A stretch of DNA of 64,000 nt from contig JBHLMN010000012.1 of the NCBI GenBank assembly GCA_048938105.1, forward strand, positions 1 to 64,000, in the 5' to 3' direction. Position 1 is the stretch's first letter. Each line of letters opens with the position of its first letter. The position numbers and the translations under genes were made by a program. The DNA is from Promethearchaeota archaeon. GTDB lineage: Archaea > Asgardarchaeota > Heimdallarchaeia > Hodarchaeales > Hodarchaeaceae. Shown here piece after piece: positions 18,971 through 42,955 of the stretch. The notes under the pieces were generated by a model. That model was not told the DNA's origin, ran no database searches, and saw nothing but the letters and a program-made list of their open reading frames with translations.

Positions 18971-18998
18971 ATGTCATCAAACCAGCCCTCTATAATTG
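18971..18998 (+). repeat. dif-like site (class II)
   Basis: atgtcatcaaa-ccagcc-ctctataattg. Confidence 0.85.
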
Positions 18999-19224
18999 AA
19001 ATAAGTTATTTGACAATTTTTTTTACTTCTATCTTAAAATGAAATTGAATAAAAATTATGATAGTATTGAGATGGTATGAGATGACCGAGTTCTATTCCT
19101 ATTGGTCGAAAATTTGCACTAATTTTAGGACCTATCTTAATCTTCCTGTTATTTCTTCCATTTAACGATATAGGTAGCTTTTCTTGGTTGAGAAGTTCAT
19201 AATTATCTACATAGAACATGAATT

Positions 19225-20109
19225 TTAATGCTGAATTCTGTCAATGAATAAATTGATGAATTTTCGTATAACTTTCCGCATTACATTAGATCTTGTAATG
19301 ATTCCAGCAAAAGGAGGGGACAATTTATAATATAATTTAATTATTGAATTCCCAAAGGAAGTTTTGCCTAATGATTCATCACGCCAGCCTCGTAAAATAT
19401 CCAGCTTAAGATGAAGTGGATCGCCATATGCAGCAGTTGCAATAAAGCATTTACCGATAATAGGGTTTATAATAACAGGCCTAGCATACAATCTGAGCCT
19501 TCCATAACGTCTAATTTCGAGAAAAAGAAGAAATGGCTCACCGTCTACATTAACACCGCTTTTTGCAACCCTAAGGGGAACAACAACTGGGGAAATTTCA
19601 GATTCAAGATCAAATGTGAACCTGTGCCCCATACGATCACCTGGCCACTCAGTATTGTCTCTTTCAGCTCCTTGGACGTATTGTTCATGTTCAATCCACG
19701 CTCCTTGCACAGGTTCCCAATTCGGCTCAACGTAATCTTGCCATAAAGGTGAATGCTCTTTTGTAGGAAAAGTATCATCACCAGCTGGGAATCTCACTGT
19801 GTAATTACCGCGTTCTCCGTGGCCAAGATATTCTGGAGGATTTAGGATGGAATATGGGTCTGCAACTGATGCTTTAGGTTTTAACAAGTGAAGCTCTAGC
19901 TTATTTGGGATCTCATCAGAATTTTGCCTATTCAAATTCCATTTAATTACTACATTTCCCCAATCGACCTCTGTTTCTGTAGGCGGATACGAAGGAAGGG
20001 TAGGATTCCCTTCAGTAATATTAATCGGATTTACCCTCCCATGATCAACACTATAGATAATTTCAGACTCAATCGTTGTAAAATCCAAATTTCTCACCAT
20101 TCTACTCAA
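19225..20109 (-). CDS. Protein with C-terminal CFI-box-CTERM domain
   Basis: GKCFIATAAYG...LRGWRD...YYKLSPPFA. Confidence 0.8.
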   Translation of the reverse strand: MSRMVRNLDFTTIESEIIYSVDHGRVNPINITEGNPTLPSYPPTETEVDWGNVVIKWNLNRQNSDEIPNKLELHLLKPKASVADPYSILNPPEYLGHGERGNYTVRFPAGDDTFPTKEHSPLWQDYVEPNWEPVQGAWIEHEQYVQGAERDNTEWPGDRMGHRFTFDLESEISPVVVPLRVAKSGVNVDGEPFLLFLEIRRYGRLRLYARPVIINPIIGKCFIATAAYGDPLHLKLDILRGWRDESLGKTSFGNSIIKLYYKLSPPFAGIITRSNVMRKVIRKFINLFIDRIQH

Positions 20110-20469
20110 TGACTAAAATAATTTCCCTCTATTTCTAGAAACTTAATTTCGAAACTAAATTATTTCTATCTAAATTATTACTTATAAAGTTTGACTTGAA
20201 ATGAAAAGTGAATTCTGCTCCAAAAAATAGTATTTAGTTTGAGTCACAAATTCTAACTTCTGAAAAATCATTAGGATTATAAATAATTCTTAATATACTG
20301 CGTCTGGTGTTTTACTACTCGAAAGCTTAATTATCCTTGGAATATTAGTTGGATTCGTTAAGTTAAATGAAGGGATCTCTAGAATCGAAATACTAAATCT
20401 ACCAACCGATCAGACTTTTAGGACGTTTCAAACAAAAAATGTATATGAAGTAAGTGGTCTTAATCTGCA

Positions 20470-20721
20470 ATGTTTACATCTCTTGTGCCCTTAAAGGACT
20501 TATTGGATGAACCAAAAGAGAAAGATAGGTATATGTTTGTGTGGTTTATTTTAGGAGAATTAAGAAAAAGTTTAATATTCCCATTTCCTTATTTCACGAG
20601 TAATGCTGTTTTTGAAAGAAAAAATGATGCGTTAGAGAAAATCATTGTCATTGAAAATGCTAGATCAATATTACAGGGCTTGTGTCCTCATTGTAATGGT
20701 AATTATTCAAAAAACAGGTAG
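20470..20721 (+). CDS. Short hypothetical protein or fragment (CxxC)
   Basis: 83-aa ORF containing CPHC. Confidence 0.3.
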   Translation: MFTSLVPLKDLLDEPKEKDRYMFVWFILGELRKSLIFPFPYFTSNAVFERKNDALEKIIVIENARSILQGLCPHCNGNYSKNR

Positions 20722-20846
20722 ATCAGTTTTCAGAGGGAGAAAGTATTACTTGTAATTATTGCAATCATTCAATTAAAGCGGAATGGGTATCAATGAATCC
20801 CTAATTTGGATGACATGGGTTAGATTGTTTAACATCTAGAAATTTT

Positions 20847-20874
20847 CCGTCGCAAAAGGCTGGATTAACACCCA
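20847..20874 (-). repeat. dif-like site (class I)
   Basis: ccgtcgcaaaa-ggctgg-attaacaccca. Confidence 0.9.
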
Positions 20875-21026
20875 ACTTATAGAAAACCAGTTATCTTAAG
20901 TACTTCACTATTTATCTTAAGTACTTCACGTATCTTTGGGAAGAATAAACAGCAGTATTCAAGAAGAAAAGTATGAAAACGGCAGTTTTCCTTTTTGTAC
21001 AATTTCGTAATGTCATCAAACCAGCC
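20858..21026. mobile_element. Internally deleted copy of the GNAT module 25513-27165
   Basis: 20864-20910 matches 25519-25565 and 20928-21026 matches 27066-27165 with few differences. Confidence 0.9.
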
Positions 21027-21037
21027 TTCTTCATCTA
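21010..21037 (+). repeat. dif-like site (class II)
   Basis: atgtcatcaaa-ccagcc-ttcttcatcta. Confidence 0.9.
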
Positions 21038-21212
21038 AAGCAGTTGGTATCTAAAACTTTTGAAAATTAAATTACAGTCAAAAAAAAATCATGTGACAAA
21101 ACTAGAAAAATATTCAAATCTAAAATCCTTGATTGGGAATAAGTACTAGTAAAAATACATACCTTTAAAATATACATATTCACGGATTCCAATCAACCCT
21201 CATTAACAAAGG

Positions 21213-21518
21213 ATGAAAGAAGTGTTAACAAGAAAGAAAATCATAGATTTTCTGGAAGCTGAAATTCCATTTCTCATGGAGGCATATCATGTTAATACAA
21301 TTGGCTTATTTGGATCTTATGCTCGTGAGGAACAGAGTGAAACAAGCGATTTAGATTTGCTTGTTGAATTTACGAAACCAATCAGTTATTTTAGTCTTTT
21401 CAAGTTAGAAGATTATTTATCAGATAAACTCGGCGTTCATGTCTAAATTGTTACTCCAAGTGGATTAAAAGAATTAATAAAACCAAAAATAATGAGGGAT
21501 ATAGTCTATGTCAAGTAG
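21213..21518 (+). pseudogene. MNT (minimal nucleotidyltransferase) antitoxin with internal stop
   Basis: GLFGSYAREEQSETSDLDLLVEF; TAA at 21444 is followed in frame by the typical MNT tail IVTPSGLKELIKPKIMRDIVYVK. Confidence 0.85.
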
Positions 21519-22584
21519 GACTCCTAAATTATTATTATGGATGATTCTGATTATTCCTATAAGTGTCATTTCTGGTGATACACCCTCTCTTGATTTAGAA
21601 TTGACTAAGGTTGGTGAGATACAAACAGGTGGTGTTGCTGTGGATATTCAGGTTATAGATGACCTGCTATATGTTGCAGATCACCTAGGTTTGTTGATTT
21701 ACAATATTTCTGCCCCTGATTATCCTCAAAAAGTAGGACAATATTTAGATGGTGGAACAGGACATGGAATTCATATAGATGGAAGTTACGCATTCATTGC
21801 TGACCTTGTCGATGGCTTAGAAGTGTATGATATTTGTACCCCAACAAGTCCCCAAAAAATCGGAAGTTATTTCGATAAGAGAATGGTTGTAGATGTATTT
21901 GTTCAAGGGTCATTATGTTATGCTTCTGTACACGGTACAGAATTTGCTGTACTTGATGTTAGTAATCCAGGGAACATTACAAGAATCGGACACTATGATG
22001 ATATAGTAGTTGGGTATAGCATCTATTGTATTAACAATATTGCATTCGTAGCCGATTATGATGCTGGTTTACTAATTCTAGATATTAGTAATGCCAGCAA
22101 CCCTCATTTAATAGGAAAATTTAACGATGGAGACATTATAAGGGCTATTGATGTCGAAGATAACATTGTATTCGCCTCATGTGCAACTGATGGAGGATTT
22201 AAAACCATAAATGTTACTGAGCCATCAAATCCTGTACTACTAGGAGAGTATCAAAACATTAGTTTCGGGATCGGAGTCGATAAAAAGGAGGAATATGCCT
22301 TTGTCTGTGACTATGATAATGGATTGAGAATTTTGGATGTTGATAACCCAGTTAATCCCACCTTAAGTGGATCATACGAAGGGGAAAAGTTCTTTCATGT
22401 ACATGTAGTCAACGAATATGTTTATGTATTACAAAGTGGTGGAATTATTTTAATACTCCAGATAAATAAAAATACTTCCTCTACTTCTGATTCTAGTACA
22501 CCTGGGTATGAACTAGTTTATTTTCTTTTAATTTTTGGGCTAATATCTCTATTACACAAGAATAAGCATAGGAAAAACAAATAG
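21508..22584 (+). CDS. LVIVD-repeat beta-propeller surface protein
   Basis: Repeats such as AFVADYDAGLLILDISNASNP; signal peptide; S/T linker + PGY + TM + basic tail. Confidence 0.9.
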   Translation: MSSRTPKLLLWMILIIPISVISGDTPSLDLELTKVGEIQTGGVAVDIQVIDDLLYVADHLGLLIYNISAPDYPQKVGQYLDGGTGHGIHIDGSYAFIADLVDGLEVYDICTPTSPQKIGSYFDKRMVVDVFVQGSLCYASVHGTEFAVLDVSNPGNITRIGHYDDIVVGYSIYCINNIAFVADYDAGLLILDISNASNPHLIGKFNDGDIIRAIDVEDNIVFASCATDGGFKTINVTEPSNPVLLGEYQNISFGIGVDKKEEYAFVCDYDNGLRILDVDNPVNPTLSGSYEGEKFFHVHVVNEYVYVLQSGGIILILQINKNTSSTSDSSTPGYELVYFLLIFGLISLLHKNKHRKNK

Positions 22585-22735: not shown

Positions 22736-22763
22736 ATTTCGTAAAAGACTGGTTTAGAATTCA
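22736..22763 (-). repeat. dif-like site (class I)
   Basis: atttcgtaaaa-gactgg-tttagaattca. Confidence 0.7.
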
Positions 22764-22860: not shown

Positions 22861-23991
22861 GTGATTGAGATGAAAAACCGAAAATATGATTTTGAGGACC
22901 TAAATTTTCATCATTTAACCCTTGAAGGGACACATTATGAGGTGGGACAGCAGATGGCCAGGTTATTAAGCACTATCCCGGGATGGAGCGATTTTGCATC
23001 CTCTGGGAAACTCAATCTTAAAAAAGTGCGATTTCCAAGCTTTAAGGAATTATGGGAGTATACAGAAGAGTGTTGTCCAGGAGTGACTCAAGAAATCCAA
23101 GGATTTGCGGATTATTTTAAAGTATCACCTAAAACACATCCTTTTTGGAATTGGACGTTCAATGATTCACTTGGAGGGGAATGTTCACAGTTAGCTGTTT
23201 TATCACGAGTTACTTCAAATCAACACACACTCGTAGGACGGAGTTATGAATGGAATCACAAAGAAGAAGACATGAAATTAATAACTACTAGAATAAAGAG
23301 GAAAGCAGCACATATTGGTTTTTCTTGTCTACTACACGGTCGTCATGATGGTATGAATGAACATGGCCTGGTAGTATCAATGACAGGGGGTGGAATATTT
23401 GGTGTACCATTTAAACAGAGAGGACCCATGTTCTGGTTAACAATAAGGGCCATACTTGACACCTGTACATCAGTAGATCATGCACTCAATTATCTGAGAG
23501 AATTACCAGTGAACGGATATTTTTCCCTTCTTCTCGTGGATCAACAAGCAAATGCAGCTATTGTGGAATTTGCAGAAGAAAAGAAATTCGTTCGCCAAAT
23601 AGGTGACACAGGAGACTTATCATATCTTTTTTCAGTGAATCATTATCGTTCCCCTGAAATGGAAGAATTTAACAAGCTTAATTGTGGAATAATCACTCAC
23701 TCAAAGATCCGTGAGAAATTAATTACGGATTGGTATCAAGGACATACTTCTAAAATTTCTGCGGAGGATGTACGCACACTCTTTGCTACTCTCCATCCTG
23801 AAGGGTTATGTAATCATTTTTACAACGGAGGGTTTGGCACCTTGTGGTCTATGATCTTTGATATCAACCAAATGGCAGTAGATGTGTGTTTTAGTGCGCC
23901 AACCCACAACAAGTATCATACATTCGATCTAACATCTCCTTGTGGAATAACAGAGTATCCTACTACTGTTCCCATTACAGAATGGTATTAA
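22861..23991 (+). CDS. C45 family Ntn-hydrolase (acyl-CoA:6-APA acyltransferase-like peptidase)
   Basis: GTHYEVGQQ, ECSQ nucleophile, VGRSYEW and DGMNEHGL. Confidence 0.88.
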   Translation: MIEMKNRKYDFEDLNFHHLTLEGTHYEVGQQMARLLSTIPGWSDFASSGKLNLKKVRFPSFKELWEYTEECCPGVTQEIQGFADYFKVSPKTHPFWNWTFNDSLGGECSQLAVLSRVTSNQHTLVGRSYEWNHKEEDMKLITTRIKRKAAHIGFSCLLHGRHDGMNEHGLVVSMTGGGIFGVPFKQRGPMFWLTIRAILDTCTSVDHALNYLRELPVNGYFSLLLVDQQANAAIVEFAEEKKFVRQIGDTGDLSYLFSVNHYRSPEMEEFNKLNCGIITHSKIREKLITDWYQGHTSKISAEDVRTLFATLHPEGLCNHFYNGGFGTLWSMIFDINQMAVDVCFSAPTHNKYHTFDLTSPCGITEYPTTVPITEWY

Positions 23992-24124: not shown

Positions 24125-24152
24125 ATGTCGCCAAAGGCTGATTAGCAGATTT
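24125..24152 (-). repeat. dif-like site (class I, 1-nt core deletion)
   Basis: atgtcgccaaa-ggctg(-)-attagcagat. Confidence 0.75.
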
Positions 24153-24523: not shown

Positions 24524-24551
24524 ATGTCGTCAAACCAGCCTAAGACAAACG
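24524..24551 (+). repeat. dif-like site (class II)
   Basis: atgtcgtcaaa-ccagcc-taagacaaacg. Confidence 0.9.
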
Positions 24552-24574
24552 TCGTAATATTCTTGATTATAAAA

Positions 24575-24955
24575 TCACAAACCAAATCGATAAATTTTTC
24601 CAGACTGAAGAATACTACATAAAAACTTGATATCATCTGAAGGCGTGCCCTTAAAAGGACTTTCAATAGCATTTTCTTGATGTCGTGGATGAGTATGATG
24701 TGGTTTAGAAGTTACTTCCCATTTGTCATCAAAATTATCGAATCTGATACGATCTAGCTTCTGGGAGGAAAACATCACCACATAGGAATATTGTCCATAA
24801 TTATTATAGCGAATGAAGACTGTCACTCCGCTTTTCAATTTTATTCCTAATTTGCCAGTATCTTCGTCTAGATCAATCTCGGAAATAAACCCTCGTAATT
24901 CTTTGAGAATAATATCATATGCTTTAAGAATTAGTTCCTCAGATAACAAGATCAT
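24575..24955 (-). CDS. DUF6516/TumE-like putative toxin
   Basis: YSY...IRFDN...T-PHHxH motif. Confidence 0.7.
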   Translation of the reverse strand: MILLSEELILKAYDIILKELRGFISEIDLDEDTGKLGIKLKSGVTVFIRYNNYGQYSYVVMFSSQKLDRIRFDNFDDKWEVTSKPHHTHPRHQENAIESPFKGTPSDDIKFLCSILQSGKIYRFGL

Positions 24956-25198
24956 TCACTGTAAGCCAAGTAACAGTTTTTCTATTTCATTTCGTTTATC
25001 ACGTAAATTCTGTAAATCTATTGCATCGTCTTCAGCTTCAGGTAAGGTTCCAGTCTTTGTGCCTTTGATTAATTCGTCAATTGAATTAATATTCCATTTC
25101 CTGAGGATTTTATCAATTTTTTCAGTCAATACACGGAGTTTTGTTTCAATTAAATCTCGTGCTGTTTCAGAATCTAAAGTAATGGACATCTTACTCAT
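24956..25198 (-). CDS. Putative antitoxin of the DUF6516 toxin
   Basis: 80-aa acidic helical protein abutting the toxin gene. Confidence 0.6.
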   Translation of the reverse strand: MSKMSITLDSETARDLIETKLRVLTEKIDKILRKWNINSIDELIKGTKTGTLPEAEDDAIDLQNLRDKRNEIEKLLLGLQ

Positions 25199-25501
25199 TC
25201 CTACAATAGAAACATTTATTTTAAAATGTTATCAATATTCAGATTTAAATTTGAATAAAATTTTTTTTAAACCACTTGTTCAGATAAGTGATAATATTAG
25301 TTAAAAAGATAAAGCTATGGTTAGAATTACACTTTATATTGCCTGAAGAAGACCTTGAAGAGTTAGAATTACATGAGCTTAAACAAATAAGGAAAAAAAT
25401 GGAAGAGGGAGAACGAGCTCGCTGGAAAAAGGAATGAGTGATCAATTACTCAATTTTCTTACATTTTTTATTCTTTTGTGTTTTATAAGATATCCTTTCT
25501 A

Positions 25502-25529
25502 ATATCGTAAAAGGCTGGATTAACACCCA
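25502..25529 (-). repeat. dif-like site (class I)
   Basis: atatcgtaaaa-ggctgg-attaacaccca. Confidence 0.9.
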
Positions 25530-26129: not shown

Positions 26130-27086
26130 GTGAAATTGGAAATACATGTGAATGAATGGGAAAAAGTCCAACTTGACAAAACTGCTAGGCTAATTTTTGA
26201 TTCCAGGCTTGGAGCTTTAGGTGAAATAAACACCGTTGTTATAAGACTAAAATCATTACGAATGGAATTATCTCCGAATCCTGTGTATATCATTCAAGCC
26301 GTTGAGAAAGAAAAGCTGGTTGGTTGGTTAATGCTCCATCTAATGAATGGTTCAACAGTTGAATTAAACCCTGGTTCACTTCTAAAGGGACACCCTGTAA
26401 TTTCACCAGAGATGAATTTTCATAAAATAAGTTCTAGATTGATAGAAGAAGCTATAAATTGGACTAAAAAGGAAAAATTCAAAAAAATTGACCTCACTAT
26501 TCCGATAGAAGAAGAAGAAGCCAAGAACAGGGATTTTCTAGATTTTTACGGAACTTATGGATTCAAGAAGACATACTTCTGCATGCAATGTGAACTTTTT
26601 GAGCAGAAGATTGATCAAGTTATGATTCCTGAAGATTTTGAGATCAAACAACTTAAAATGCTTAACCATGAAGACATATACAGATGTTATTATGATGCGT
26701 TCAATACTGGTCAATCTCCTTTCTTTTTTGAGCAAAGCGAAACAGAAAAAAGGGATTATTTTGACACTTTACTCACGGAAATCACTTTAAATGAAGAAGC
26801 ATCTCTAGCAATTCTGAAAGGTAATCAGCTCGTAGGTTTTACACTTGTCGCTCCCATATTCGGTGAAACCAATAAACATCTAAATTGCATATGTATTCGT
26901 CCAGATTTCAGAAAAAAAGGATTAGGAAGAAATCTTCTTGCTGCTACAATGAAGAAGGTTGTTAAACAAGGAAATAGAACAATGACCTTATACACTGATG
27001 TATTTAATACGCGGGGAATAGATCTTTATCAAAAAAATGGATTTAAAGAAGGAGGTGGGACTATTACGTATCTTTGGGAAGAATAA
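26130..27086 (+). CDS. Tandem GNAT acetyltransferase
   Basis: CIRPDFRKKGLGRNLL and N..GIDLYQKNGF; degenerate N-terminal GNAT. Confidence 0.9.
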   Translation: MKLEIHVNEWEKVQLDKTARLIFDSRLGALGEINTVVIRLKSLRMELSPNPVYIIQAVEKEKLVGWLMLHLMNGSTVELNPGSLLKGHPVISPEMNFHKISSRLIEEAINWTKKEKFKKIDLTIPIEEEEAKNRDFLDFYGTYGFKKTYFCMQCELFEQKIDQVMIPEDFEIKQLKMLNHEDIYRCYYDAFNTGQSPFFFEQSETEKRDYFDTLLTEITLNEEASLAILKGNQLVGFTLVAPIFGETNKHLNCICIRPDFRKKGLGRNLLAATMKKVVKQGNRTMTLYTDVFNTRGIDLYQKNGFKEGGGTITYLWEE

Positions 27087-27148: not shown

Positions 27149-27176
27149 ATGTCGTCAAACCAGCCTTCAGTACCGA
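27149..27176 (+). repeat. dif-like site (class II)
   Basis: atgtcgtcaaa-ccagcc-ttcagtaccga. Confidence 0.9.
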
Positions 27177-28670: not shown

Positions 28671-28698
28671 ATGTCGTCTATGGCTGGTTTAATAAAAT
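28671..28698 (-). repeat. dif-like site (class I variant)
   Basis: atgtcgtctat-ggctgg-tttaataaaat. Confidence 0.8.
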
Positions 28699-28732
28699 TC
28701 TTGTTAGGTTCAGCTAAATGACCGTTATTTGT

Positions 28733-30457: not shown

Positions 30458-30463
30458 AGATTT

Positions 30464-31778: not shown

Positions 31779-31806
31779 ACATCGTCAAACAAGCCTTCCA
31801 TTCGTT
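31779..31806 (+). repeat. dif-like site (class II)
   Basis: acatcgtcaaa-caagcc-ttccattcgtt. Confidence 0.75.
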
Positions 31807-31873: not shown

Positions 31874-32347
31874 TTATAATCCCTGTAAAAGCCACTCTTT
31901 CAATACATCAAATATAGGATCAATAGCCTGTAAACGATGTAAAAACTGTTTAAAATTCTGGATCCGTTCAACATGGGGAATATCATGTAATTGAACAGGA
32001 TCTGTAGGAAGTCCATAAGTTGTTATATCCACATTATGTTTTTGAGATCGAGAAAGAATCCATGCTTCAATGTAATTTGGAATAATGATCAATTTTATAT
32101 TTTCTGAATCTTGACGACGCATTAAGCGAAGATCTTCATTATTATCAATCTGTACATAATTCCTTAGATCCTTTGGTTGTGTACTTGTAGGATCTTCATC
32201 AACCATTCCGAGTGTACCAAAACCTTTCCGAAGACTATTTATGACTCTTCCTTTACCCGATTCATGACGAATCGAGGTAGCTGGAATTTCAAGAGATTGA
32301 ACAAAATAGAAATCGAGATCACATTCAACTACGATCACCCAAATCAC
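31874..32347 (-). CDS. Small TOPRIM/DUF4435-like partner of the AAA ATPase
   Basis: VVECDLD, GMVDED and IEAWIL acidic motifs; 4-nt overlap with the ATPase gene. Confidence 0.55.
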   Translation of the reverse strand: MIWVIVVECDLDFYFVQSLEIPATSIRHESGKGRVINSLRKGFGTLGMVDEDPTSTQPKDLRNYVQIDNNEDLRLMRRQDSENIKLIIIPNYIEAWILSRSQKHNVDITTYGLPTDPVQLHDIPHVERIQNFKQFLHRLQAIDPIFDVLKEWLLQGL

Positions 32348-33351
32348 ATCTTATAGAATGAGCTGATATTAAAGAATGGATCTTTTTCTGAATCTAAAAT
32401 GTCCTCAACTTCAGATGATGACAAAGATGTAAGTTTAGTTTGATAATCTTCAAAATAGGTAACAAAAGTGTTTGTAGTAGCTTTAGGTGCCTTAGCAAGA
32501 ATTGAAGTCAAGAAATATGGATTATGGGTAGCAATAAAGTACTGATTTCGTGTGTCTAGGGCGATTTTTTCTGCAAGAAGTTTTGTATAATAAGGAAACA
32601 CATGTCCCTCTGGTTCTTCGAACACTAGAATAGAATCTTTATTTGAATTGATCGCAAACATATAGAAGATCATATGTCTTAATGTATTTGATGTGACGAT
32701 ATAGGGATATAAAATAATAGTATCATTAACTTGTTTCTGGATTTCAAAATTAAGGTCTTGTGGTTTGAAAACAAGACTAAAACCGAAGTCTTTAACCATT
32801 TGTTGTATTAATGATCTGTGGGCATTATTACCATAAATCACAGAGAACAAATTAGATCCGTTTGGTGGTAGTAAAAACTCCCTCATTTTACTTTGGAATT
32901 GAATGAGATTTTTGAAACGATAGAATTTTATTGCTTTGAGTAAAGGAAGAATTTCAGTTATAAAATGTCCTGTGGAACTTCCACCTGCATATTCCCCGTT
33001 ATGATTAAACCTAGCTTCACCTTTTGAGCTAGACTCCTGAAGAATAAAAACATCATATTCATATCGCAAAGAGAATGTAATATGGTTGATTCGCATTATA
33101 ATTGAATTTTCGGTTAAATCATCATAAAAAAGATTAGATATGTTTTGAAATCGTACAAAATCACTTAATATTGAAGGATCATAACCCCATGCACTAAGGA
33201 GACCTAAAACTTCTAATAAATTAGATTTACCTGAATTAGGTTCACCTATGAGGAGGTTAATTCGCTGGGGTTTCATTTGTAATTCTTTTATTGATTTGAA
33301 ATTAGAAATAGCCAGATTCTTGATCATCATGAGGAAACCTCCTTTGTGCAA
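32344..33351 (-). CDS. ABC/AAA ATPase (AAA_15/AAA_21, OLD/AbiEii-like)
   Basis: ISNFKSI, LIGEPNSGKSNLLE, VFEEPEGH and IATHNPY. Confidence 0.9.
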   Translation of the reverse strand: MHKGGFLMMIKNLAISNFKSIKELQMKPQRINLLIGEPNSGKSNLLEVLGLLSAWGYDPSILSDFVRFQNISNLFYDDLTENSIIMRINHITFSLRYEYDVFILQESSSKGEARFNHNGEYAGGSSTGHFITEILPLLKAIKFYRFKNLIQFQSKMREFLLPPNGSNLFSVIYGNNAHRSLIQQMVKDFGFSLVFKPQDLNFEIQKQVNDTIILYPYIVTSNTLRHMIFYMFAINSNKDSILVFEEPEGHVFPYYTKLLAEKIALDTRNQYFIATHNPYFLTSILAKAPKATTNTFVTYFEDYQTKLTSLSSSEVEDILDSEKDPFFNISSFYKM

Positions 33352-33598: not shown

Positions 33599-33626
33599 AT
33601 GTCGCAAAAGGCTGGTATAGATAGCA
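33599..33626 (-). repeat. dif-like site (class I)
   Basis: atgtcgcaaaa-ggctgg-tatagatagca. Confidence 0.88.
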
Positions 33627-34296: not shown

Positions 34297-34324
34297 ATGT
34301 CGTCAAACCACCATTATCCCACTG
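34297..34324 (+). repeat. dif-like site (class II, 1-nt core deletion)
   Basis: atgtcgtcaaa-cca(-)cc-attatcccac. Confidence 0.8.
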
Positions 34325-34565: not shown

Positions 34566-34593
34566 TTTTCGTAAAAGTCTGGATTAGCACCTT
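34566..34593 (-). repeat. dif-like site (class I)
   Basis: ttttcgtaaaa-gtctgg-attagcacctt. Confidence 0.8.
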
Positions 34594-34693: not shown

Positions 34694-37288
34694 TCATGTG
34701 TCAAAGACACCTTCTTTTATTTTTAGAGGATTTCCTACTAGGAGAAGTTTGACTTCCCCTTGATATTTCAAAGATTTCAGTGAATTTGGTATTTTTTTCA
34801 ACTTATTATAAGACAAATTTAATTGTTTGAGTCTATTTAGTTTCTTTATCGATTCTGGGACATCAATCAGTTGATTATATGATATATTTAAGTTCTGTAA
34901 TTTCTCGAGGTGGCCAATTGTTTCTGGTATGTGTTTTAATTGGTTGTTCCATAAATTTAAAGATTTTAGTTCGGTGAGGTGAGTGATTGTATCAGGTATC
35001 TGTGTTAGTTTGTTATCTGCTAGATCTAAGTTCTGTAATTCCTTGAGATGACCAATTGTTTCTGGTATGTGTGTCAGTCTGTTACTTGACAGATCTAAAT
35101 CTTTTAATTGAGTGAGACGGGTAATTGCGTCAATAAAATTGGTTAGTTGATTGTCTGATAAATTTAAAGATCTTAATTGTGTAAGATGGGTAATTGTGTC
35201 AGGTAAACTAGTCAATAAATTATCTGTGAAGTCCAGATCTTGTAAATGGGTATGTTGTTTTATTGTCTCTGGTATTTGTGTCAGTTGGAGATCAATTAAA
35301 TCTAGATCATAAAATTGATCCAGTTGGTCAGTCGATTCAGGTTGGTTAGTCCTTTGTTTATTTGATAGATCAATAGAAATCAAGTTTCCATTAGTATCAG
35401 GATAAAGATAATCAGAATACGGTGAAGATATATTGGAATTTGAAATTAATTCGAATAACAATTGAGGAATAATCCAACGGTTCTTTCCTGATTTAAGAAT
35501 GGTCCAAATCCATAACTCTTCCCAAATTTCTTTTGGATTTGTACGATTGAATTTTTTCTCTAAAAATTGGTTGGTTTTTTCTATTTCTATGTTTAAAATA
35601 TCTCTTGATCTCTTCAAAAGTGATGAATCGTCACATTGCTGGATAATACTCTTGTACCAATGAGCTAAATTAGTATGAGGAAAAATCCAGTGCTTGTTTT
35701 CCATTTTTCCAATAGATATCAAACCAATTATTCTTGCTATTCCACCTAATCTTTTCCTAATTCGTTTTTGGAGTTTTTTGCCTGGGATTCTGTCAAAATA
35801 CGATTGAACAATTGCTATACGAGCAAGTTCATAACCTATCTTGATAATAATTCGTTCTTGTTCACTAGTGTCGAATCGTTGAGTTTTTCTTTTGTTATAT
35901 TGCAGATAATGATTTATTGAGCTGTGTAAGGTACTCAACAGGATCTTTTCATATAACGTCTTTAAATGATCCAATGTTATTGTCTCATGACAAAACGGGT
36001 CATTTGTCTTGATGATTAGGTCTGACCAACTACTTAATGCCAATCTGGTCAAAACTAGATCGTTTTCTGTTAAACTAATGAAGTGTTTTCGTAATGCTTT
36101 ATAAGGAGGTAAATCCTGTAAATTTCTATCAACAATTGTTGCTTTAAGTAAGGCATCGCAAGACAAAAGAAAATGAAACTCTATTTTTGCATTTTCCATC
36201 CATTGATCTTCAATAAAAGGATTTTCTTCAAGTGGTCGTGATAGAAACCAGGTATGAATTTTTATTGTTTTGTTGTCTTGCTGATTTGCATTATATGATA
36301 AAGTATCACAGATTTTACTTATATTTTTCATAGTTCGGAATGGATCGGTTACCAAATGGAGATCATCCAACACAAAACATATAATTTGATGTTTATTCCA
36401 ATCTGCTTCTGCGATCAGTTTAATATCTTTTTCTAAGGTTTGACTCGTAATATAAGGATCGTCCCAAGTCTTTTCTTTGAATGAATAGTAAAAAGAGTTG
36501 AATTGAAATTCATCTGCCCCTAAATAACGATTCTTTGTTTCAAACATGACTTTACTGAAGGGCTGTTTACTTAAGTCTCTCTCATTCAAAAGATCCTCTA
36601 AAAATGCCATCATGCCTAATGCTTGACTAGTTTTTCCTCCTCCTGCTGATTCTGTTGTAAACGCGACTTGATAATTCGAAAAGGCCTCGATTAAGCGTTT
36701 AAACGCTTTTTCTGAAATTGGTGCCCAGCTTCTAAAATCTGTGAGTGTAACCCAAGGATATAATTCAGAAGTAGTTTTGTTCTTTATCCTAAATATTAAA
36801 GGTGTTTCTTTTAAGTATGATAGACTAAGCTTTGGGGATTTCTTCACTTTTTGCTTTATGGGAATATAATTCTCTGGTTTTAAGACTTCTAATATTGATA
36901 GAACTATCTGCTTCAATCCTTTTTCGGTTTTGATTGCGCTAAGATTAGCTAAAAATGGAGAATGGTGTAAAAAATCGTCACGTGATATTCCATGCCAGAT
37001 TGGCAAAATGAACTTACCCTCTTTGATTTGTCTTTGGATCAAACCATCTAGTTCATATTCAGGCCATTCTTTTGCAAAAAATGCTTGGCTAAAAACAACA
37101 ACGGCAAATCGTGATTTCTGAATTCCTTCGTCTATTTTTTTTCTTAAATTATCCCCGAGAGTTAAACTTATTTCATCATAAAAAACCTTTATTCCATGTA
37201 ATTCTAGATCTTTTGCTAATGGTTTTACAAGCTCCTCCTTGTCTTCAGAAGCATGACAGATAAATAGATCATATGTGAATTCAGACAT
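34694..37288 (-). CDS. TIR - P-loop NTPase - leucine-rich repeat protein
   Basis: TIR (YDLFICHASEDK, FYDE, EWPEYELDGL, ILPIWH); Walker A-like SAGGGKTS and Walker B FVLDDLH; about 8 23-aa LRRs (LxxLDLSxNxLTxIPETIGxL). Confidence 0.88.
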   Translation of the reverse strand: MSEFTYDLFICHASEDKEELVKPLAKDLELHGIKVFYDEISLTLGDNLRKKIDEGIQKSRFAVVVFSQAFFAKEWPEYELDGLIQRQIKEGKFILPIWHGISRDDFLHHSPFLANLSAIKTEKGLKQIVLSILEVLKPENYIPIKQKVKKSPKLSLSYLKETPLIFRIKNKTTSELYPWVTLTDFRSWAPISEKAFKRLIEAFSNYQVAFTTESAGGGKTSQALGMMAFLEDLLNERDLSKQPFSKVMFETKNRYLGADEFQFNSFYYSFKEKTWDDPYITSQTLEKDIKLIAEADWNKHQIICFVLDDLHLVTDPFRTMKNISKICDTLSYNANQQDNKTIKIHTWFLSRPLEENPFIEDQWMENAKIEFHFLLSCDALLKATIVDRNLQDLPPYKALRKHFISLTENDLVLTRLALSSWSDLIIKTNDPFCHETITLDHLKTLYEKILLSTLHSSINHYLQYNKRKTQRFDTSEQERIIIKIGYELARIAIVQSYFDRIPGKKLQKRIRKRLGGIARIIGLISIGKMENKHWIFPHTNLAHWYKSIIQQCDDSSLLKRSRDILNIEIEKTNQFLEKKFNRTNPKEIWEELWIWTILKSGKNRWIIPQLLFELISNSNISSPYSDYLYPDTNGNLISIDLSNKQRTNQPESTDQLDQFYDLDLIDLQLTQIPETIKQHTHLQDLDFTDNLLTSLPDTITHLTQLRSLNLSDNQLTNFIDAITRLTQLKDLDLSSNRLTHIPETIGHLKELQNLDLADNKLTQIPDTITHLTELKSLNLWNNQLKHIPETIGHLEKLQNLNISYNQLIDVPESIKKLNRLKQLNLSYNKLKKIPNSLKSLKYQGEVKLLLVGNPLKIKEGVFDT

Positions 37289-37351
37289 TTATCTTACCTT
37301 ATAAACAACATCTGGTCACTAAGAGCAACAAATAACAATAAAATCATCTCT

Positions 37352-38440
37352 TCATAAATCTTGCAAGAATTTATCCAGACTATGAAGCTCTGAAACCTCT
37401 AAAAGATTATTAGCTGTCATTGTATTTTGATATTGTTTCACATTCTTATAGAACCGTGGGATTGCACGCGAATGTTCTTTAAACTCTCCTTTTTTCATAT
37501 AACCAACGAAATAAATGTTGGTATCGTATATCCATATATTCTCCCAATCATTTTGAAGAATACATACTTTTTCTCGTGTTTTCCTCCTTACTTTAAAACC
37601 GAATTTTGGTTCAATAATCTCTCTAGGCATATCAGTTTCTGCTTTAATTGTTAAAGTTCCTTGAGGAATCATTCCATTAGGTACATGGACATAGAAAAGT
37701 TGAAAGAAACTGTTTTGCGTTTTAGATTTTGGAGGGTTGCCTTTTAAAATTACTTTTTCAAACATAAACTTTCTATAACTTGATGTTCCTCCGATTACGA
37801 TTTCTTTACTATGATCATCTTCGTTATTGGAGATGATAGTGATTCGACCGAGTTGGGATGGTCCATAGGCTTTTATGAACTTCTGAGGTTTCACCCATGC
37901 ATATTCCCAAAAGGAGTGTATAAAGTATTTTTTGTATCTACTTTCTTGGAATGAATCAAGGTCAATACAACCATTATCTGGAGTTAATTTACCAGTTACA
38001 AACGCAAAAATGTAGAAATCATCGTCTATCATTGATTTAGCTTTCAATTGATCTGATGGTACTAAAGCTGCACAATCTAGAAGCCATTTGGTAGATGAAG
38101 GAGATAAATCCCCAATATTCTTTGATTCTAGATAAGAAGAATCAAGATCTAGAAAAAATGATTTGATATCACATTTGTGAGTGTTTATAGTAAGACTATA
38201 ACGATCAACATCGTACCACTTGGTTCCCCTTTCTTTTTCATACATTACGTTTTTAGTTTCTAGTAACTCTTCAAAAGCAAGTTCAGGAATGATTCCCTTT
38301 ACAAGATTTTTCATCCGGTAATATGGATTTGCGCTTGACATTCTATTAAAGGTCGAGTTTAAAGCTTTTTCTGCATATTTTATACCTTGAAGTATCCATT
38401 TGTCTTTGGTTTCTATGTGTATTATATCTTCATCAAGCAT
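37352..38440 (-). CDS. Hypothetical protein, possible PD-(D/E)XK endonuclease
   Basis: GIIPELAF...D...KCDIKS arrangement resembles an REase active site. Confidence 0.45.
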   Translation of the reverse strand: MLDEDIIHIETKDKWILQGIKYAEKALNSTFNRMSSANPYYRMKNLVKGIIPELAFEELLETKNVMYEKERGTKWYDVDRYSLTINTHKCDIKSFFLDLDSSYLESKNIGDLSPSSTKWLLDCAALVPSDQLKAKSMIDDDFYIFAFVTGKLTPDNGCIDLDSFQESRYKKYFIHSFWEYAWVKPQKFIKAYGPSQLGRITIISNNEDDHSKEIVIGGTSSYRKFMFEKVILKGNPPKSKTQNSFFQLFYVHVPNGMIPQGTLTIKAETDMPREIIEPKFGFKVRRKTREKVCILQNDWENIWIYDTNIYFVGYMKKGEFKEHSRAIPRFYKNVKQYQNTMTANNLLEVSELHSLDKFLQDL

Positions 38441-39003
38441 TTTTTATCTCTCATAGCATGAAAAGTTTGTGGTTTTAGCTAAAGTAAAAACTTTTCTCTG
38501 CTTTAGTGTACGTAAGTATAAATCGGATTCTAATCACTTTTTATTTGGCTTCTGAAAGAATACACAATGGATTATAATTTTGAAAAACTGTTCTTTAATA
38601 GGCTTAAAACTTCTTTAATCTTATCTCTTGGATTCATTTTTCTACTTTTCATTTTGAAACGATAAACCCTCATCAAGAGTCTAGGATCTTAATTTCAGAG
38701 ACATTAACAGAAATGGGTGTTACAAAGGGTAGTTTAATTAATCTAGATACTAATGGAACTTCTGAAAAAGCACATTGTTAAACTAACCTCCCAGATATTT
38801 GTAAAAAGTTCGATAGCTATTTTCTAGTTTGATCTAAGTTAATTTATTAATTTTTTACACAGATAAGATAAGAGTAAATGGACTTTTAATAGCAAATTAA
38901 AGAGATAAATTTTAGTTATAATGATTAGATAATGCTTTATTATTCAATTGAACAATAGCTAGAAAAGTCGATTAGTATAATCATTAGCTTTATTCGAAAA
39001 GAA

Positions 39004-39981
39004 ATGGAATTGAGATATGTTATGTATCAAGACTATATTATTTATCTTCGTCAAGGAGCAGACCGATGGAATACTTGGCGTCATAAAAATCCTAGAATAA
39101 AACCTAATCTATCACGACAGATATTTCCTAAACTTGATTTGTCAGAATTTGACTTTTCTTACACCGATTTTTCCAACTCGAATCTTTCTGAATTGAACCT
39201 ATCAGAATCAGTGTTGTATAAAGCTAATTTTTCATATTCTGATCTTTCTAATACCGATCTTTCGAAAACAAGCCTATATTATACTACTTTTTTTCGAACT
39301 GATCTAAGGAATACTAATTTTTCTCTATCTAAACTACGTGGTACGAGTTTCACTTTCACTGATCTTAGTCAATCTAAATATTTAGATACAATCGAACATC
39401 AAGGTCCGAGCAGCATTGATATCTCTACTCTTCATCAGTCAAAAAAACTTCCTAAAAGCTTTTTACGGGGATTAGGAGTTCCTGAACTGTATATCAGGAA
39501 TCTTTCAGTATTTATTACACATGAATGGCAATTCTATACCTGTTTTATTTCCCATAGTAGTCATGATAAGGCTTTTGTACGAAAGCTTTATAATGCTCTT
39601 CAACATCAAGGAATCCGTTGTTGGTATGATAAAGAAGATGCTACATGGGGGAAAGAAATCAAACCGATTCTTAATGAAAAAATCGAAGAGTTTGACAAAG
39701 TTGTGGTTGTTTGCAGTGAAGATTCCCTCAAATCAGAATGGGTAAATCATGAGATTGAAAGAGCTTTGCAAAAGGAAGAAAAGAACCGAGAAATCGAATC
39801 TATACCTGAAATCTTATTCCCTATAATAATAGATAAGTCCCTCTCTAATTGGCTAAATCATCTAAAGAAGTTTGGAGTAGAACGTATTATCGGGGACTTC
39901 TATGATTGGAGGAGTCCAATAAAATTTAATCAGAGCCTCACACGATTGGTGCAGGCCTTAAAGAGTGATTCCCCACGATAA
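39004..39981 (+). CDS. Pentapeptide-repeat + TIR domain protein
   Basis: WNTWR then (S/A)NLSx/TDFSx repeats; TIR CFISHSSHDKAF, WYD and SEWVNHEI. Confidence 0.9.
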   Translation: MELRYVMYQDYIIYLRQGADRWNTWRHKNPRIKPNLSRQIFPKLDLSEFDFSYTDFSNSNLSELNLSESVLYKANFSYSDLSNTDLSKTSLYYTTFFRTDLRNTNFSLSKLRGTSFTFTDLSQSKYLDTIEHQGPSSIDISTLHQSKKLPKSFLRGLGVPELYIRNLSVFITHEWQFYTCFISHSSHDKAFVRKLYNALQHQGIRCWYDKEDATWGKEIKPILNEKIEEFDKVVVVCSEDSLKSEWVNHEIERALQKEEKNREIESIPEILFPIIIDKSLSNWLNHLKKFGVERIIGDFYDWRSPIKFNQSLTRLVQALKSDSPR

Positions 39982-40044
39982 TACAATAATGTAATCTAAC
40001 CCTAACTTGGATTTTATAAAACTATGATTTTCTTTATTACCTCC

Positions 40045-40458
40045 CTACTCATGATATGCAGTATATTGAAAAGCATGAGTTAAGGCTCTTCTTATATTTA
40101 TTCTGTCCCACTGAAAGATAGGAATACTCTTAGTCGAAATGAGGTGTGGTGGTACGAAGCGATTTGGAGTAACAACAATAGCTGCAATTCCGATATGTAG
40201 AGAACTCGCCACTGATAATTCATGGTCGACCCACTCACTTTGAAAGGTATTTTGTCCAAGTAAACAAACCAAAGCACGGCAGGGATTAATCAATTCATTG
40301 AGATATTTTCGCACTTCATCATACCCATATATTCTATAATCCTCTCGTGCTGAAATCGGGGTATGATTAAATTTGGCATTGGGATTTTGCATTAGTCCTT
40401 CAAATGCTTCTCGATAGTCTCGATCTTTTTCCTTATAACTAACGAAAACTTTTGCCAT
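40045..40458 (-). CDS. Stand-alone TIR domain (ThsB/MTH538-like)
   Basis: KVFVSYK, LVCLLGQNT and SEWVDHEL. Confidence 0.85.
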   Translation of the reverse strand: MAKVFVSYKEKDRDYREAFEGLMQNPNAKFNHTPISAREDYRIYGYDEVRKYLNELINPCRALVCLLGQNTFQSEWVDHELSVASSLHIGIAAIVVTPNRFVPPHLISTKSIPIFQWDRINIRRALTHAFQYTAYHE

Positions 40459-40665
40459 ATTTTCTACGCCAAAGTATTACTTAATTTCTAGTTAAGAAGG
40501 AATACATCATATACATGTTCGAAAAGTTTATTTATTATACTTATTAGATTCTTCCTAAAAATCCTTCAACGATTAATAGCACTATAAAGTAAAAAGGTTG
40601 AGGGAATTAAGTTATCCAAATAAAGAATCAAAATTGTGTTATCAATAAAAACATGGGGAAGTTAA

Positions 40666-41202
40666 ATGACTAAGCGACACAAAGTATTTTTATGTTTTCA
40701 TCATGAAAATGATGAGAACTATAAGAACCAATTCGAGCAAAAATTTGGTAGTTTGTATGTATCAAAATCAGTGGAGATAGGAGACATTGATCCTAATTTA
40801 AAAACAGAAACAATAAGACGTAAGATAAGAGATGAATATTTAAGAGATTCAACTGTAACAGTTGTTCTTGTTGGCAAAGAAACATGGAAAAGAAAACATG
40901 TGGATTGGGAAATTTCTTCTAGTATTCGACATACTCAATACAATCCTAGATCTGGTCTCCTAGGACTTATTCTGCCCACACATCCAAATTTTTCTACAGA
41001 AACATATGATCCGCATATCATTCCTCCACGATTATATGATAATATTGAATGTGGATTTGCTAAAATTTATAATTGGACCGATGATGTTTCAACAATTGAA
41101 CAGCGTATCCATGACGCTTTTCAACGTAAGGATAAAATTCTACCAGACAATTCAAGATTACTCTTCAAGAATAACCGCTCTGGGGATAAATGGCAAGATT
41201 GA
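40666..41202 (+). CDS. Stand-alone TIR domain (ThsB/DUF1863-like)
   Basis: HKVFLCFHH, IRDEYLRDSTVTVVLVG and RKHVDWEI. Confidence 0.88.
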   Translation: MTKRHKVFLCFHHENDENYKNQFEQKFGSLYVSKSVEIGDIDPNLKTETIRRKIRDEYLRDSTVTVVLVGKETWKRKHVDWEISSSIRHTQYNPRSGLLGLILPTHPNFSTETYDPHIIPPRLYDNIECGFAKIYNWTDDVSTIEQRIHDAFQRKDKILPDNSRLLFKNNRSGDKWQD

Positions 41203-41332
41203 AAAAACAAATTTTCCAATTAGAACTAATCTCAGTTTAAATTCGTCTTTTTCCTTAGTATCATTTAAAAAGAGAAATTTAGCTCCTCTTGGAACAGAAA
41301 ACCTTTTCTCATATTTAAATGAGGAGTTTATT

Positions 41333-41863
41333 ATGCCAAAAGTAAAAGAGGTTACTGTTAATATCGGAGTTAAGGATGTTTTTTCAATAAGTGGTACTTT
41401 TGTTCCAAACAAAAATGAAGAAGAGGCTGCCTGGGAATTATATGTAGAATTGATAACCCGAATCACAGTTGTTAAGCTAAAAAAAGACAAAGGTTTTCTG
41501 AGAGAAGCATTAAATTCTTATCATAGTTTATTTAAGACAACAAGGGGAATTATGCGGGAAAAAGGCCCAGATTTAGCAAGACCCAAATCAAGTAGTAAAA
41601 TTACACTTGGTTTAATAGCTGTTTCAGTTTTAAATTATGTTTTAAGGCCATTGCTGACAGAATGGCACCCAATTTTAGAAGATTATGAATCGACACGTCC
41701 AAAAAACCTTTCACGAAAAGCTCATGAAGATAAATGGGAAAACAACAAAGACCTAAGAGATAAAATTGCTGAGACTAGAGAAACTTTACTACATTATGCC
41801 CAGCTACTTGCTGATATTGCAAAAGTTGAACCAATCCACATTGTTCCAGCTCCTCTTACCTAG
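41333..41863 (+). CDS. Conserved-looking helical hypothetical protein downstream of the TIR gene
   Basis: GAGGAG RBS before ATG 41333; AAWELYVELITRI...LRPLLTEWHP. Confidence 0.7.
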   Translation: MPKVKEVTVNIGVKDVFSISGTFVPNKNEEEAAWELYVELITRITVVKLKKDKGFLREALNSYHSLFKTTRGIMREKGPDLARPKSSSKITLGLIAVSVLNYVLRPLLTEWHPILEDYESTRPKNLSRKAHEDKWENNKDLRDKIAETRETLLHYAQLLADIAKVEPIHIVPAPLT

Positions 41864-42006
41864 AGGGATTAAGAAGTTCCAGTGTTGAAATTATTTCAAA
41901 TTGATAAACATCCACATTGCGAATTGTTGGTTCTCATTCATGTAATTTATAACAGCTCATATCTAATTACAAATAATCTGTACAACTATGGAATTTTTTT
42001 TCTCAA

Positions 42007-42034
42007 ATGTCGTCAAACCAGCCTGAGAGAAGCT
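42007..42034 (+). repeat. dif-like site (class II)
   Basis: atgtcgtcaaa-ccagcc-tgagagaagct. Confidence 0.9.
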
Positions 42035-42081
42035 TTCTGAGGGAATAGAAGCCCCTAAGAAAGATAATTAATTGTAAAATA

Positions 42082-42330
42082 CTACCCTCTAGAGACTCCT
42101 AGCTCATCTAACAAGTTAACAAAGTCCAAAACACTCATCTCAGCAATGGAAGCGGCACCTTCATAAAGTCGAAATTCAACAAATAATTTAATTGCCTCAA
42201 TCTGCTTTTTAGTACATTTATTCTTAATTAAATCCCAATTAACTGATTTTCGCCTTTCTTCTTTCGCCTCCTTCTCCCAAGCTTCAAAGTTTTCCATATA
42301 TTCTTCTGCCAATTTTCTTGCATTACTCAT
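42082..42330 (-). CDS. UPF0175-like antitoxin
   Basis: C-terminal AIKLF...GAASIAEMSVLDFVNLLDELGV HTH; overlaps the PIN gene. Confidence 0.65.
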   Translation of the reverse strand: MSNARKLAEEYMENFEAWEKEAKEERRKSVNWDLIKNKCTKKQIEAIKLFVEFRLYEGAASIAEMSVLDFVNLLDELGVSRG

Positions 42331-42823
42331 GATTACCATACCTTTGTTTTATACGAAAAAGATCTTTGGTTGAGTAAGTGCCAAGGAGTTTATCAAAAAA
42401 ATCTATTTTAATCTTACCCAATTCTAATAATCGAGTAAAGAAATAAGTACCTCTGAATATTTTGACTTCGGAATATTCTTGATGATGTTTTCGTATATAC
42501 CAGGGGGCAAAATTATCACTAATAACGAGGAAATATCCCCGCGATAGAGACAGAACTAATGTTTCAATTTCACTAACATGTTTTCCAGCATATTGAGAGG
42601 AAAATTCTTCATGTAATACATTGAATCTTTCTCTTTCAGCTGTTGTCAATTCTTCTTTCGTCATACAATTCAATTTCTCTAAATCACGATGAAATTGAAA
42701 AGATTCCTTCCATACTTCTGGAGAAATTAATATTTCATCAAAAACATCACAAAGATACTTTATAACTTCCAATCTCTTTAGATTAACTAGAAAAGAAGTA
42801 TCTAGCACCGTTTTTTCTTTCAT
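42323..42823 (-). CDS. PIN-domain toxin (DUF3368-like)
   Basis: VLDTSFL, ISPEVWKE, SEIETLVL and ISDN. Confidence 0.8.
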   Translation of the reverse strand: MKEKTVLDTSFLVNLKRLEVIKYLCDVFDEILISPEVWKESFQFHRDLEKLNCMTKEELTTAERERFNVLHEEFSSQYAGKHVSEIETLVLSLSRGYFLVISDNFAPWYIRKHHQEYSEVKIFRGTYFFTRLLELGKIKIDFFDKLLGTYSTKDLFRIKQRYGNHE

Positions 42824-42927
42824 TTCAACCTAAGGGAATTGTAAGATTTGAGAATTTATAAAGATATGTGGTTATCTTATGTTACAATTTAGATTTGTTG
42901 AAGTTTTTGGTGAATAATTTTGAACTA

Positions 42928-42955
42928 ATGTCGTAAAAGGTTGATTTGCCACATA
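42928..42955 (-). repeat. dif-like site (both arms fairly close to consensus)
   Basis: atgtcgtaaaa-ggttga-tttgccacata. Confidence 0.8.

Follow-up and report, generated by a model that had tools for sequence, protein, structure and literature searches.

An array of accessory-gene modules bounded by 28-bp recombination-type sites on a Hodarchaeales chromosome

Sites of the array and their order

The sequence analyzed here, referred to below as the window, comprises the first 64,000 nucleotides of contig JBHLMN010000012.1 (assembly GCA_048938105.1) from a Promethearchaeota archaeon of the order Hodarchaeales. The contig is 205 kb long and belongs to a genome of 5.85 Mb with 35% GC. The window carries an array of short sites, read as 28 bp with an 11-6-11 layout, that separate modules of accessory genes; the core is GGCTGG in sites denoted R and CCAGCC in sites denoted F. 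The first 77 bases of the window overlap the end of contig C5, which bears five further sites, and the joined array (window plus C5) contains 31 sites. A stretch of 15 sites between positions 18971 and 42955, in which the two core orientations nearly alternate, is at the center of this analysis.

The comparison set comprised about 250 sites in 16 genomes plus a further 35 or so in metagenome contigs; approximately half of the metagenome hits to the F pattern stood alone in high-GC contigs and were dropped as chance. The same sites are present in 15 of the 20 genomes of the genus but were not found in either of the two genomes of the other family that were searched. No R sites were found in viral contigs, and an Rfam search gave no match. 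The arrays of the genus are chromosomal, located on the 205-kb contig here and at three places on a complete 4.9-Mb chromosome. A literature search of incomplete coverage, which included work on Asgard mobile elements, yielded no description of these sites.

Sequence conservation is limited to the 28 bp of the site, within which the two classes differ. R sites consist of an arm, denoted A, with five loose outer bases, the GGCTGG core, and a conserved right arm of one of three kinds (ATTARCAC, TTTAGATW, or ATTGATAA). F sites combine a near-perfect copy of the top-consensus arm with the inverted core and a nearly random right side (approximately 3 bits over 11 positions). The C at arm position -4 is found in 37 of the 38 F sites vs 51 of the 172 R sites (p = 1e-15). 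One-sided arm conservation is, therefore, a property of F sites only. The first-pass annotation of this DNA described the right arm as variable or ATTARCAC and proposed strong-by-weak pairing of sites; variability fits F sites but not the conserved classes of R sites, and strong-by-weak pairing is not supported for all sites, R sites having two conserved arms. The strong-arm consensus it proposed is recognizable throughout, with an exact match in seven arms only and a few differing bases in the others; the strong arm of the stretch is AATGTCGYMAAA. The sites of the stretch are as follows:

18971..18998, + strand: F site (core start 18982); strong arm, core CCAGCC, free right side; the same right side occurs in genome G022
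20847..20874, + strand: R site (core start 20858); arm A, core GGCTGG, arm ATTAACAC
21010..21037, + strand: F site (core start 21021); the right-hand module recurs in contig C43 and in genome G023, beginning at the site
22736..22763, + strand: R site (core start 22747); core variant GACTGG, TTTAGA-class right arm
24125..24152, + strand: R site (core start 24136); 1-base deletion at the border of core and right arm
24524..24551, + strand: F site (core start 24535); left end of module 24525-25526
25502..25529, + strand: R site (core start 25513); arm ATTAACAC
27149..27176, + strand: F site (core start 27160)
28671..28698, + strand: R site (core start 28682); right arm intermediate between the ATTGATAA and TTTAGA classes
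31779..31806, + strand: F site (core start 31790); core variant CAAGCC
33599..33626, + strand: R site (core start 33610); TTTAGA-class right arm
34297..34324, + strand: F site (core start 34308); core variant CCACCA
34566..34593, + strand: R site (core start 34577); core variant GTCTGG, arm ATTAGCAC
42007..42034, + strand: F site (core start 42018); right side common to genomes G022 and G023
42928..42955, + strand: near-palindromic site, scored R (core start 42939); core GGTTGA between two strong arms, of which the right one lacks a base; right end of the putative inversion

The remaining sites of the window are:

2105..2132, - strand: R site; opposite polarity, poor right arm
2815..2842, - strand: R site; opposite polarity
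6066..6093, - strand: arm-less site; GGTTGG core with arm ATTAACAC but no arm A; left end of the putative inversion
8732..8759, + strand: R site
9181..9208, + strand: R site; TTTAGG right arm
12622..12649, + strand: R site; arm A decayed
50609..50636, - strand: R site; opposite polarity, core GGTTGG
61579..61606, - strand: R site; opposite polarity, arm ATTGATAA

An additional, decayed R site of + polarity might be located outside the stretch at 12350-12377 (core AGCTGG at 12361).

The core calls reproduce the order reported in the first pass, F,R,F,R,R,F,R,F,R,F,R,F,R,F,R, with its single R-R exception. When the window was rescanned with position weight matrices trained only outside this contig, 14 of the 15 sites were re-found and no further ones appeared in 18971-42955 that might randomize the pattern; the missed site, at 24136, has a 1-base deletion that puts its score below the threshold. 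Three other candidates did not rise above background and were rejected: a weak F-like match at 18599 and matches to the arm alone at 24191 and 25730. All 15 sites lie outside open reading frames of at least 80 amino acids, where only 25% of the positions qualify. A runs test on the 15 sites as chosen supports alternation (p = 0.0023). When the joined array of 31 sites is searched for its best 15-site stretch, the result is p = 5e-5, a value that includes the local excess of F sites, and the lack of F-F pairs given the make-up of the 8743-42939 block has p = 0.025. A 21.9-kb unitig from the probable source run, the only sequencing run found to contain the stretch, extends from 27080 to past 43500, so that the right half of the stretch is not an assembly artefact.

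Polarity, crossover at the core and a putative inversion

The conserved arm is on the left at all sites from 8743 to 42939, as described in the first pass. The polarity change reported outside this block holds for 2116, 2826, 50620, and 61590, where the strong arm is on the right; the site at 6077 points in the same direction but has lost the arm. Outside this contig, the strong arm is on the same side in 143 of the 150 neighbor pairs (16 genomes), and the same is true of all 19 neighbor pairs in metagenome contigs. Thus, same-side polarity, with a strong arm closing every module at the same end, is a rule across the genus, in agreement with the original proposal.

Alternation, by contrast, does not extend beyond this locus. 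Among the 143 same-polarity pairs outside the contig, 110 are R-R, 30 are R-F or F-R, and 3 are F-F (2.3 expected), and a within-contig shuffle concurs (4 F-F pairs vs 4.2). Avoidance of F-F pairs as a rule is, accordingly, ruled out. Direct repeats with identical cores occur at a frequency of 0.54 vs 0.55 by chance, without depletion, which indicates that excisable single modules are not purged. Neither of the roles assigned to alternation in the first-pass annotation, a design principle and a block to excision, is supported by these counts. The share of F sites is 7 of 18 in this block vs 31 of 193 elsewhere (p = 0.025). The alternation seen here is real but local and reflects a block unusually rich in paired modules rather than an obligatory step.

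The role of the sites as crossover points of the Xer/dif type, as originally suggested, is borne out by 55 pairs of sites that have one flank in common; both flanks are common to none of these pairs. In pairs sharing the upstream flank, the left arms are 0.88 identical compared to 0.52 for the right arms; in pairs sharing the downstream flank, the respective values are 0.76 and 0.86. Each arm follows its own flank and the flanks swap at the core, so that the arms are part of the module ends and move along with them. The F or R class is constant in all but two pairs, both of which involve the same site of genome G017; the upstream-sharing pairs without a class switch include 19 R-R and 2 F-F. 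Crossover at the border of arm and core that would not require core homology, a possibility raised by the G017 exception, was ruled out as the main route given this near-constancy.

Recurring modules follow the same boundaries. Module 24525-25526 has an 89% identical counterpart in genome G017, with homology confined between the two sites. Region 20858-21021 is an empty copy of 25513-27160 that retains both module ends and lacks the gene. The one joint in the reads is this second copy of the module ends rather than a deletion. Strand exchange within a 6-bp core is the established mechanism of Xer tyrosine recombinases (PMC8371274), and the inheritance of flanks with their arms, together with the recurring modules, represents the traces expected of such an enzyme.

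With this geometry, a crossover in cis between an R and an F site must invert the intervening DNA, with two strong arms at one of the resulting sites and none at the other. The window has two places where polarity changes, and these bear such sites: the near-palindromic two-strong-arm site at 42939 and the arm-less site at 6077. Both have the GGTTG core, which is found in about 5% of R sites. Reversal of the intervening DNA on paper turns 6077 into a textbook R site and 42939 into an F-type site, and brings the whole array to a single polarity. The best explanation for the polarity flip of the window is, therefore, a single 37-kb inversion in which an R site recombined with an F site (6077 x 42939). 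The first-pass prediction that inversion rebuilds a palindromic site was correct in its R x F geometry, and one such event is visible, but this is a single long-range event rather than a walk from neighbor to neighbor.

Three further palindromic sites were identified, of which that of G012 is intact, that of G023 has a one-base deletion, and that of G007 is split by an insertion sequence. The intact palindrome (G012:C82:274) is the only exact match in 185,579 genomes. The G012 and G007 palindromes are also located at polarity changes. Random pairing of arms predicts approximately 32 palindromic and as many arm-less sites, whereas 4 and at most 7, respectively, were observed. This scarcity implies that exchange between the classes is rare or that its products are short-lived. 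Two-strong-arm sites indeed seem to be short-lived: three of the four are damaged.

Several related motifs were detected along with the R and F sites. A sister family with the core CGTTGG and the arm ATGTCGTATAA occurs in most genomes of the genus, and in this genome at C56:188082-200736, C53:230109, and on contigs C37, C61, C3, and C30; such a site can be embedded in a GGCTGG array (L266:11926). This genome also contains about ten intergenic two-arm palindromes with unrelated cores, several of them 35-90 bases past a gene end and one past radA (C2:22059, C4:251, C11:34811, C14:86382, C14:250395, C28:1284, C47:22221, C53:77819, and C63:92691), as well as a further class in which arm A stands opposite TTATAATTGTTAAAG. 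An insertion sequence encoding a 392-aa DDE transposase (PF01609) and its 80-bp miniature form, both with the ends CAGTACTTCGYA, insert inside the 6-bp core with a 4-bp duplication. R, F, palindromic, and CGTTGG-family sites have all been hit (L149:11975-13257; C39:249506-249585 in this genome; L182, L194, L214, and L223).

The XerA recombinase and the cargo of the modules

A search for the recombinase domain PF00589 gave no match on this contig, and the window thus lacks a recombinase gene. A xerA gene is located elsewhere in the genome (C14:173949-174839); in its translation the catalytic R, K, HxxR, H, and Y motifs are intact, and the product is 79-91% identical to proteins in Hodarchaeota and Heimdallarchaeota records, in line with a Hodarchaeales host. 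XerA is the only recombinase common to the array-bearing genomes (69-91% identity), with one conserved xer gene per genome. The other recombinases fall into several groups that are mostly 22-40% identical between genomes, and none of them is shared with the complete chromosome, G016. A conserved second recombinase was sought among the genomes and not found; serine recombinases occur sporadically. XerA is the likely enzyme acting on the sites.

The gene itself carries the arm. With a matrix derived from ten scattered palindromes of this genome, which are independent of the array, an arm score of at least 13.5 was found within 120 bases of the xerA start, in either orientation, in 16 of the 20 genomes of the order. 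Of 1700 gene starts in this genome, 1 reaches the same score, and no other recombinase has such a match at its start. The top-scoring copies of arm A lie at the xerA start (L001:1135-1152, just upstream of xerA; L048-L066) and in some genomes overlap the start codon, suggesting possible self-repression by XerA. In G019 and G020, XerA (L058, L061) is interrupted in frame by some 130 additional aa with a duplicated stretch; neither an arm at xerA nor GGCTGG sites were found in these two genomes with the patterns used. A third tyrosine recombinase of the present genome (L003, on the 5.9-kb contig C45) is broken by a stop codon and might be contamination.

A candidate dif site was identified as well. 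In nine genomes (L076-L092), a palindrome built of the same arms, with the core GTCTTG, is located inside a conserved gene of about 190 codons, where synonymous positions are nearly frozen. The orthologous candidate in this genome (C36:45312) has one good and one altered arm, and the encoded protein has short insertions at that point; partial copies of the 5' part of the gene are found at C36:44335 and C53:227297. The complete chromosome carries several arrays, all far from the candidate dif. A search for FtsK retrieved only short, weak matches to PF01580.

The accessory genes of the window encode peptidases, an ABC exporter, a GNAT acetyltransferase, NurA-HerA, an AAA ATPase pair, TIR and TIR-LRR proteins, and a helicase with a PLD protein. 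Within the stretch, the modules carry:

20864..21020, + strand: empty R-to-F module; both ends of module 25519-27159, its gene missing
21508..22584, + strand: LVIVD-repeat protein
22861..23991, + strand: peptidase C45/AAT-family protein, in the sole R-to-R module of the stretch
24575..25198, - strand: possible toxin-antitoxin pair of small genes, with a weak match of one to the TumE toxin
26130..27086, + strand: GNAT acetyltransferase
28733..31591, - strand: NurA nuclease and HerA helicase
31874..33351, - strand: AAA_15/AAA_21 ATPase and partner gene, defense-like
34694..41863, strand not assigned: TIR-LRR, pentapeptide-TIR, and ThsB-like TIR proteins and two uncharacterized genes
42082..42823, - strand: two small genes; a homologous module end is present at 8536-8747 and in genome G017

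Four TIR-domain genes are contained in one module (34694-41202), including that of an 864-aa TIR-LRR protein; the TIR-LRR architecture recalls eukaryotic immune receptors. In module 50620-61590, a helicase gene with a strong match to Mokosh MkoA is followed by an uncharacterized gene and then a PLD-domain gene (54565-59980), a probable defense system. At 12444-12604 there is a repeated element with approximately ten copies in the genome, often at contig ends; we take it, as a candidate only, to resemble the 3' end of IS607/IS605-type elements.

Mechanism, alternatives and related systems

Crossover in the core, typed module ends, the two site classes, and the constant side of the A-type arm can be taken as established by these sequence comparisons. 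The account that we consider probable is that of a chromosomal module array of Hodarchaeales bounded by 28-bp tyrosine recombinase sites, with XerA as the most likely enzyme and with exchange of like with like. Modules would move by R x R and F x F exchange, either through excision and integration or through cointegrate exchange between arrays, and such exchange would preserve polarity. R-to-F and F-to-R modules would be able to move only two at a time or through a double crossover. R x F crossovers would be rare and, in cis, would invert the block between the sites, yielding one two-strong-arm and one arm-less site. F sites would remain functional if their top-affinity arm compensates for the poor partner. 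As for the origin of F sites, our leading guess, which falls somewhat short of an even chance, is capture at a chance core by the top-affinity arm, which fits their free right side. Next, at clearly lower probability, comes template switching at a palindromic site that flips the core; an exactly inverted core, F arms of uniform sequence, and one module end with both cores agree with it, although the latter is a single case. More broadly, and tentatively, the XerA of Hodarchaeales might capture genes de novo, crossing over from a module end with a top-affinity arm to chance cores in foreign DNA, with F sites as the scars, making the array a host-run platform without an integrase of its own.

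Several observations weigh against like-with-like exchange by XerA. Some polarity changes in relatives lack the predicted palindromic or arm-less site. One module end has the GGTTG/GGCTGG core here and CCAGCC in G017, a switch that plain core-homology exchange cannot yield. The excess of F sites in the present block is not accounted for, and the arm at xerA could instead serve a separate regulator. The flank-sharing pairs are clustered and hence not independent, and neither circles nor inversions were seen in the reads, the depth of which was very low (2 and 12 reads in the sister runs).

In the model of the first-pass annotation, a single palindromic strong site walks along the array or captures incoming weak sites by repeated inversion, which would make alternation of the cores obligatory and prevent the excision of single modules. 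The alternating run does stop exactly at the near-palindromic 42939, the R x F inversion geometry is right, and the local alternation is significant. However, most arrays are R-R runs, F-F pairs occur at chance frequency, and identical-core direct repeats persist, whereas 42939 has a single matching partner far off, 6077, for which one event suffices. Growth through one strong site recombining repeatedly fails further because each F site needs its own strong arm, inherited with its own upstream flank, arriving with different upstream modules and differing between homologous F junctions, which one site cannot supply; the palindromes are also too few. As a general rule, this model is largely refuted, and we regard it as unlikely. 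Similarly unlikely, if marginally less so, is a scheme in which the palindromic site is an attI-like anchor with a core that flips by template switching, the left arm being perfected as well, and modules are added beside it such that the core orientation at the time of addition sets R or F. This would account for the uniformity of F arms and for an F core that is the precise reverse complement of its R counterpart; moreover, the only module end with both core orientations adjoins the palindromic site here and has an F-type arm in G017, and palindromic sites are located where polarities converge. Yet, only one switch event is seen against the 19 R-R and 2 F-F upstream-sharing pairs without a switch, the arm-less 6077 with its matching rare core is left unexplained, and a source of the F-type right sides is still required.

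The identity of the enzyme could also be questioned. About 11 array-bearing genomes have a second tyrosine recombinase, and a dedicated integrase of a mobile element encoded elsewhere could act in place of XerA, for example, the 289-aa recombinase on C56, which lies among CGTTGG-family sites; a recombinase of this kind in G023 adjoins an R-like site. The divergence of these enzymes, which form several unrelated groups, contrasts with the nearly invariant sites; G013, G017, G011, G006, and G024 (83-95% complete) have the sites but only XerA was found in them; and the arm is present at xerA but not at the starts of those enzymes. We consider this variant improbable. Least credible of all is the view of the motif as a transcription factor site, with the pattern a by-product of gene layout: all sites are intergenic, and the arm also occurs in scattered palindromes with unrelated spacers and at a gene start, but the exact swap of flanks at the core, the conservation of its asymmetric sequence, the many sites facing the 3' ends of genes, and the empty modules speak against it.

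The closest parallel to exchange of this type is found in the pdif (xrs) arrays of dif modules on Acinetobacter Rep_3/OrfX plasmids, which depend on XerC and XerD (PMC13141974, PMC11705084). The common features are 11-6-11 sites between modules, the lack of an integrase in the array, exchange within the spacer, modules without genes, and cargo resembling toxin-antitoxin pairs. In the reading proposed above, they also include a host recombinase, inversion between inverted sites whose spacers are identical or differ by one base, and modules with inverted neighbors that move only in pairs (the C and D modules of Acinetobacter; PMC13141974). The pdif sites are also targeted by an insertion sequence (PMC10132070), of the IS1202 family and at the sites, whereas the Hodarchaeales element inserts inside the core. 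The Hodarchaeales arrays differ in being chromosomal and archaeal, with one xer gene instead of XerC and XerD, one dominant core across the genus, and neighbors that are mostly direct repeats. Obligate alternation fails (13 of the 14 steps here, but R-R in 110 of the 143 pairs elsewhere), and F sites have only one recognizable arm. The likeness to pdif drawn in the first pass is partial: the conserved XerD arm of pdif swaps sides at every site (PMC13141974), whereas the Hodarchaeales strong arm keeps its side whichever class the site belongs to.

The archaeal XerA/dif system of chromosome dimer resolution (PMC2958812, PMC8371274) has the same 11-6-11 layout and a single XerA with intact catalytic residues; however, dif is single-copy with two good arms, whereas here there are dozens of sites with another core, and F sites are one-armed. 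Integrons and clusters of attC sites lacking integron integrases (CALINs), including archaeal ones, in the outline given in PMC9668308, likewise are polar tandem arrays of swappable accessory and defense modules. The present array differs in that there is no IntI in or near it, genes lie on both strands rather than co-oriented with the array, the sites are short and apparently of the double-stranded type, with a conserved asymmetric core in two orientations, and multi-gene modules reach 7 kb. The attC sites of integrons fold as single-strand hairpins.

Integrative mobile elements exploiting Xer (IMEX), such as CTX, TLC, and GGI, use the host Xer at dif, as the present modules probably use XerA, and they too have sites with one poor arm. 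Unlike these, the Hodarchaeales modules have no replication or phage genes and no match in viral contigs, and the arrays are not at the candidate dif. Overall, the array probably works much as a pdif array does, but it departs from one in alternation, arm side, XerC/XerD, and plasmid location, and it is neither dif itself nor an integron. What is new is the F class, the same-side rule whichever way the core points, the putative inversion together with the two scars expected of it, and the finding that alternation is not general.

These findings provide testable rules for an apparently undescribed gene-shuffling system of archaea: which pairs of sites recombine, how polarity is maintained, and what traces cross-class events leave. 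If the proposed role of XerA is correct, a single symmetric recombinase that keeps an array polar with one-armed sites would be new for Xer biochemistry, and, should de novo capture be confirmed, polarity would be set by arm strength rather than by two recombinases. Hodarchaeales is the archaeal order proposed to be the closest to eukaryotes. With TIR, TIR-LRR, NurA-HerA, and ATPase defense-like genes among the cargo, the arrays may be a main route by which these archaea gain and swap immune genes.

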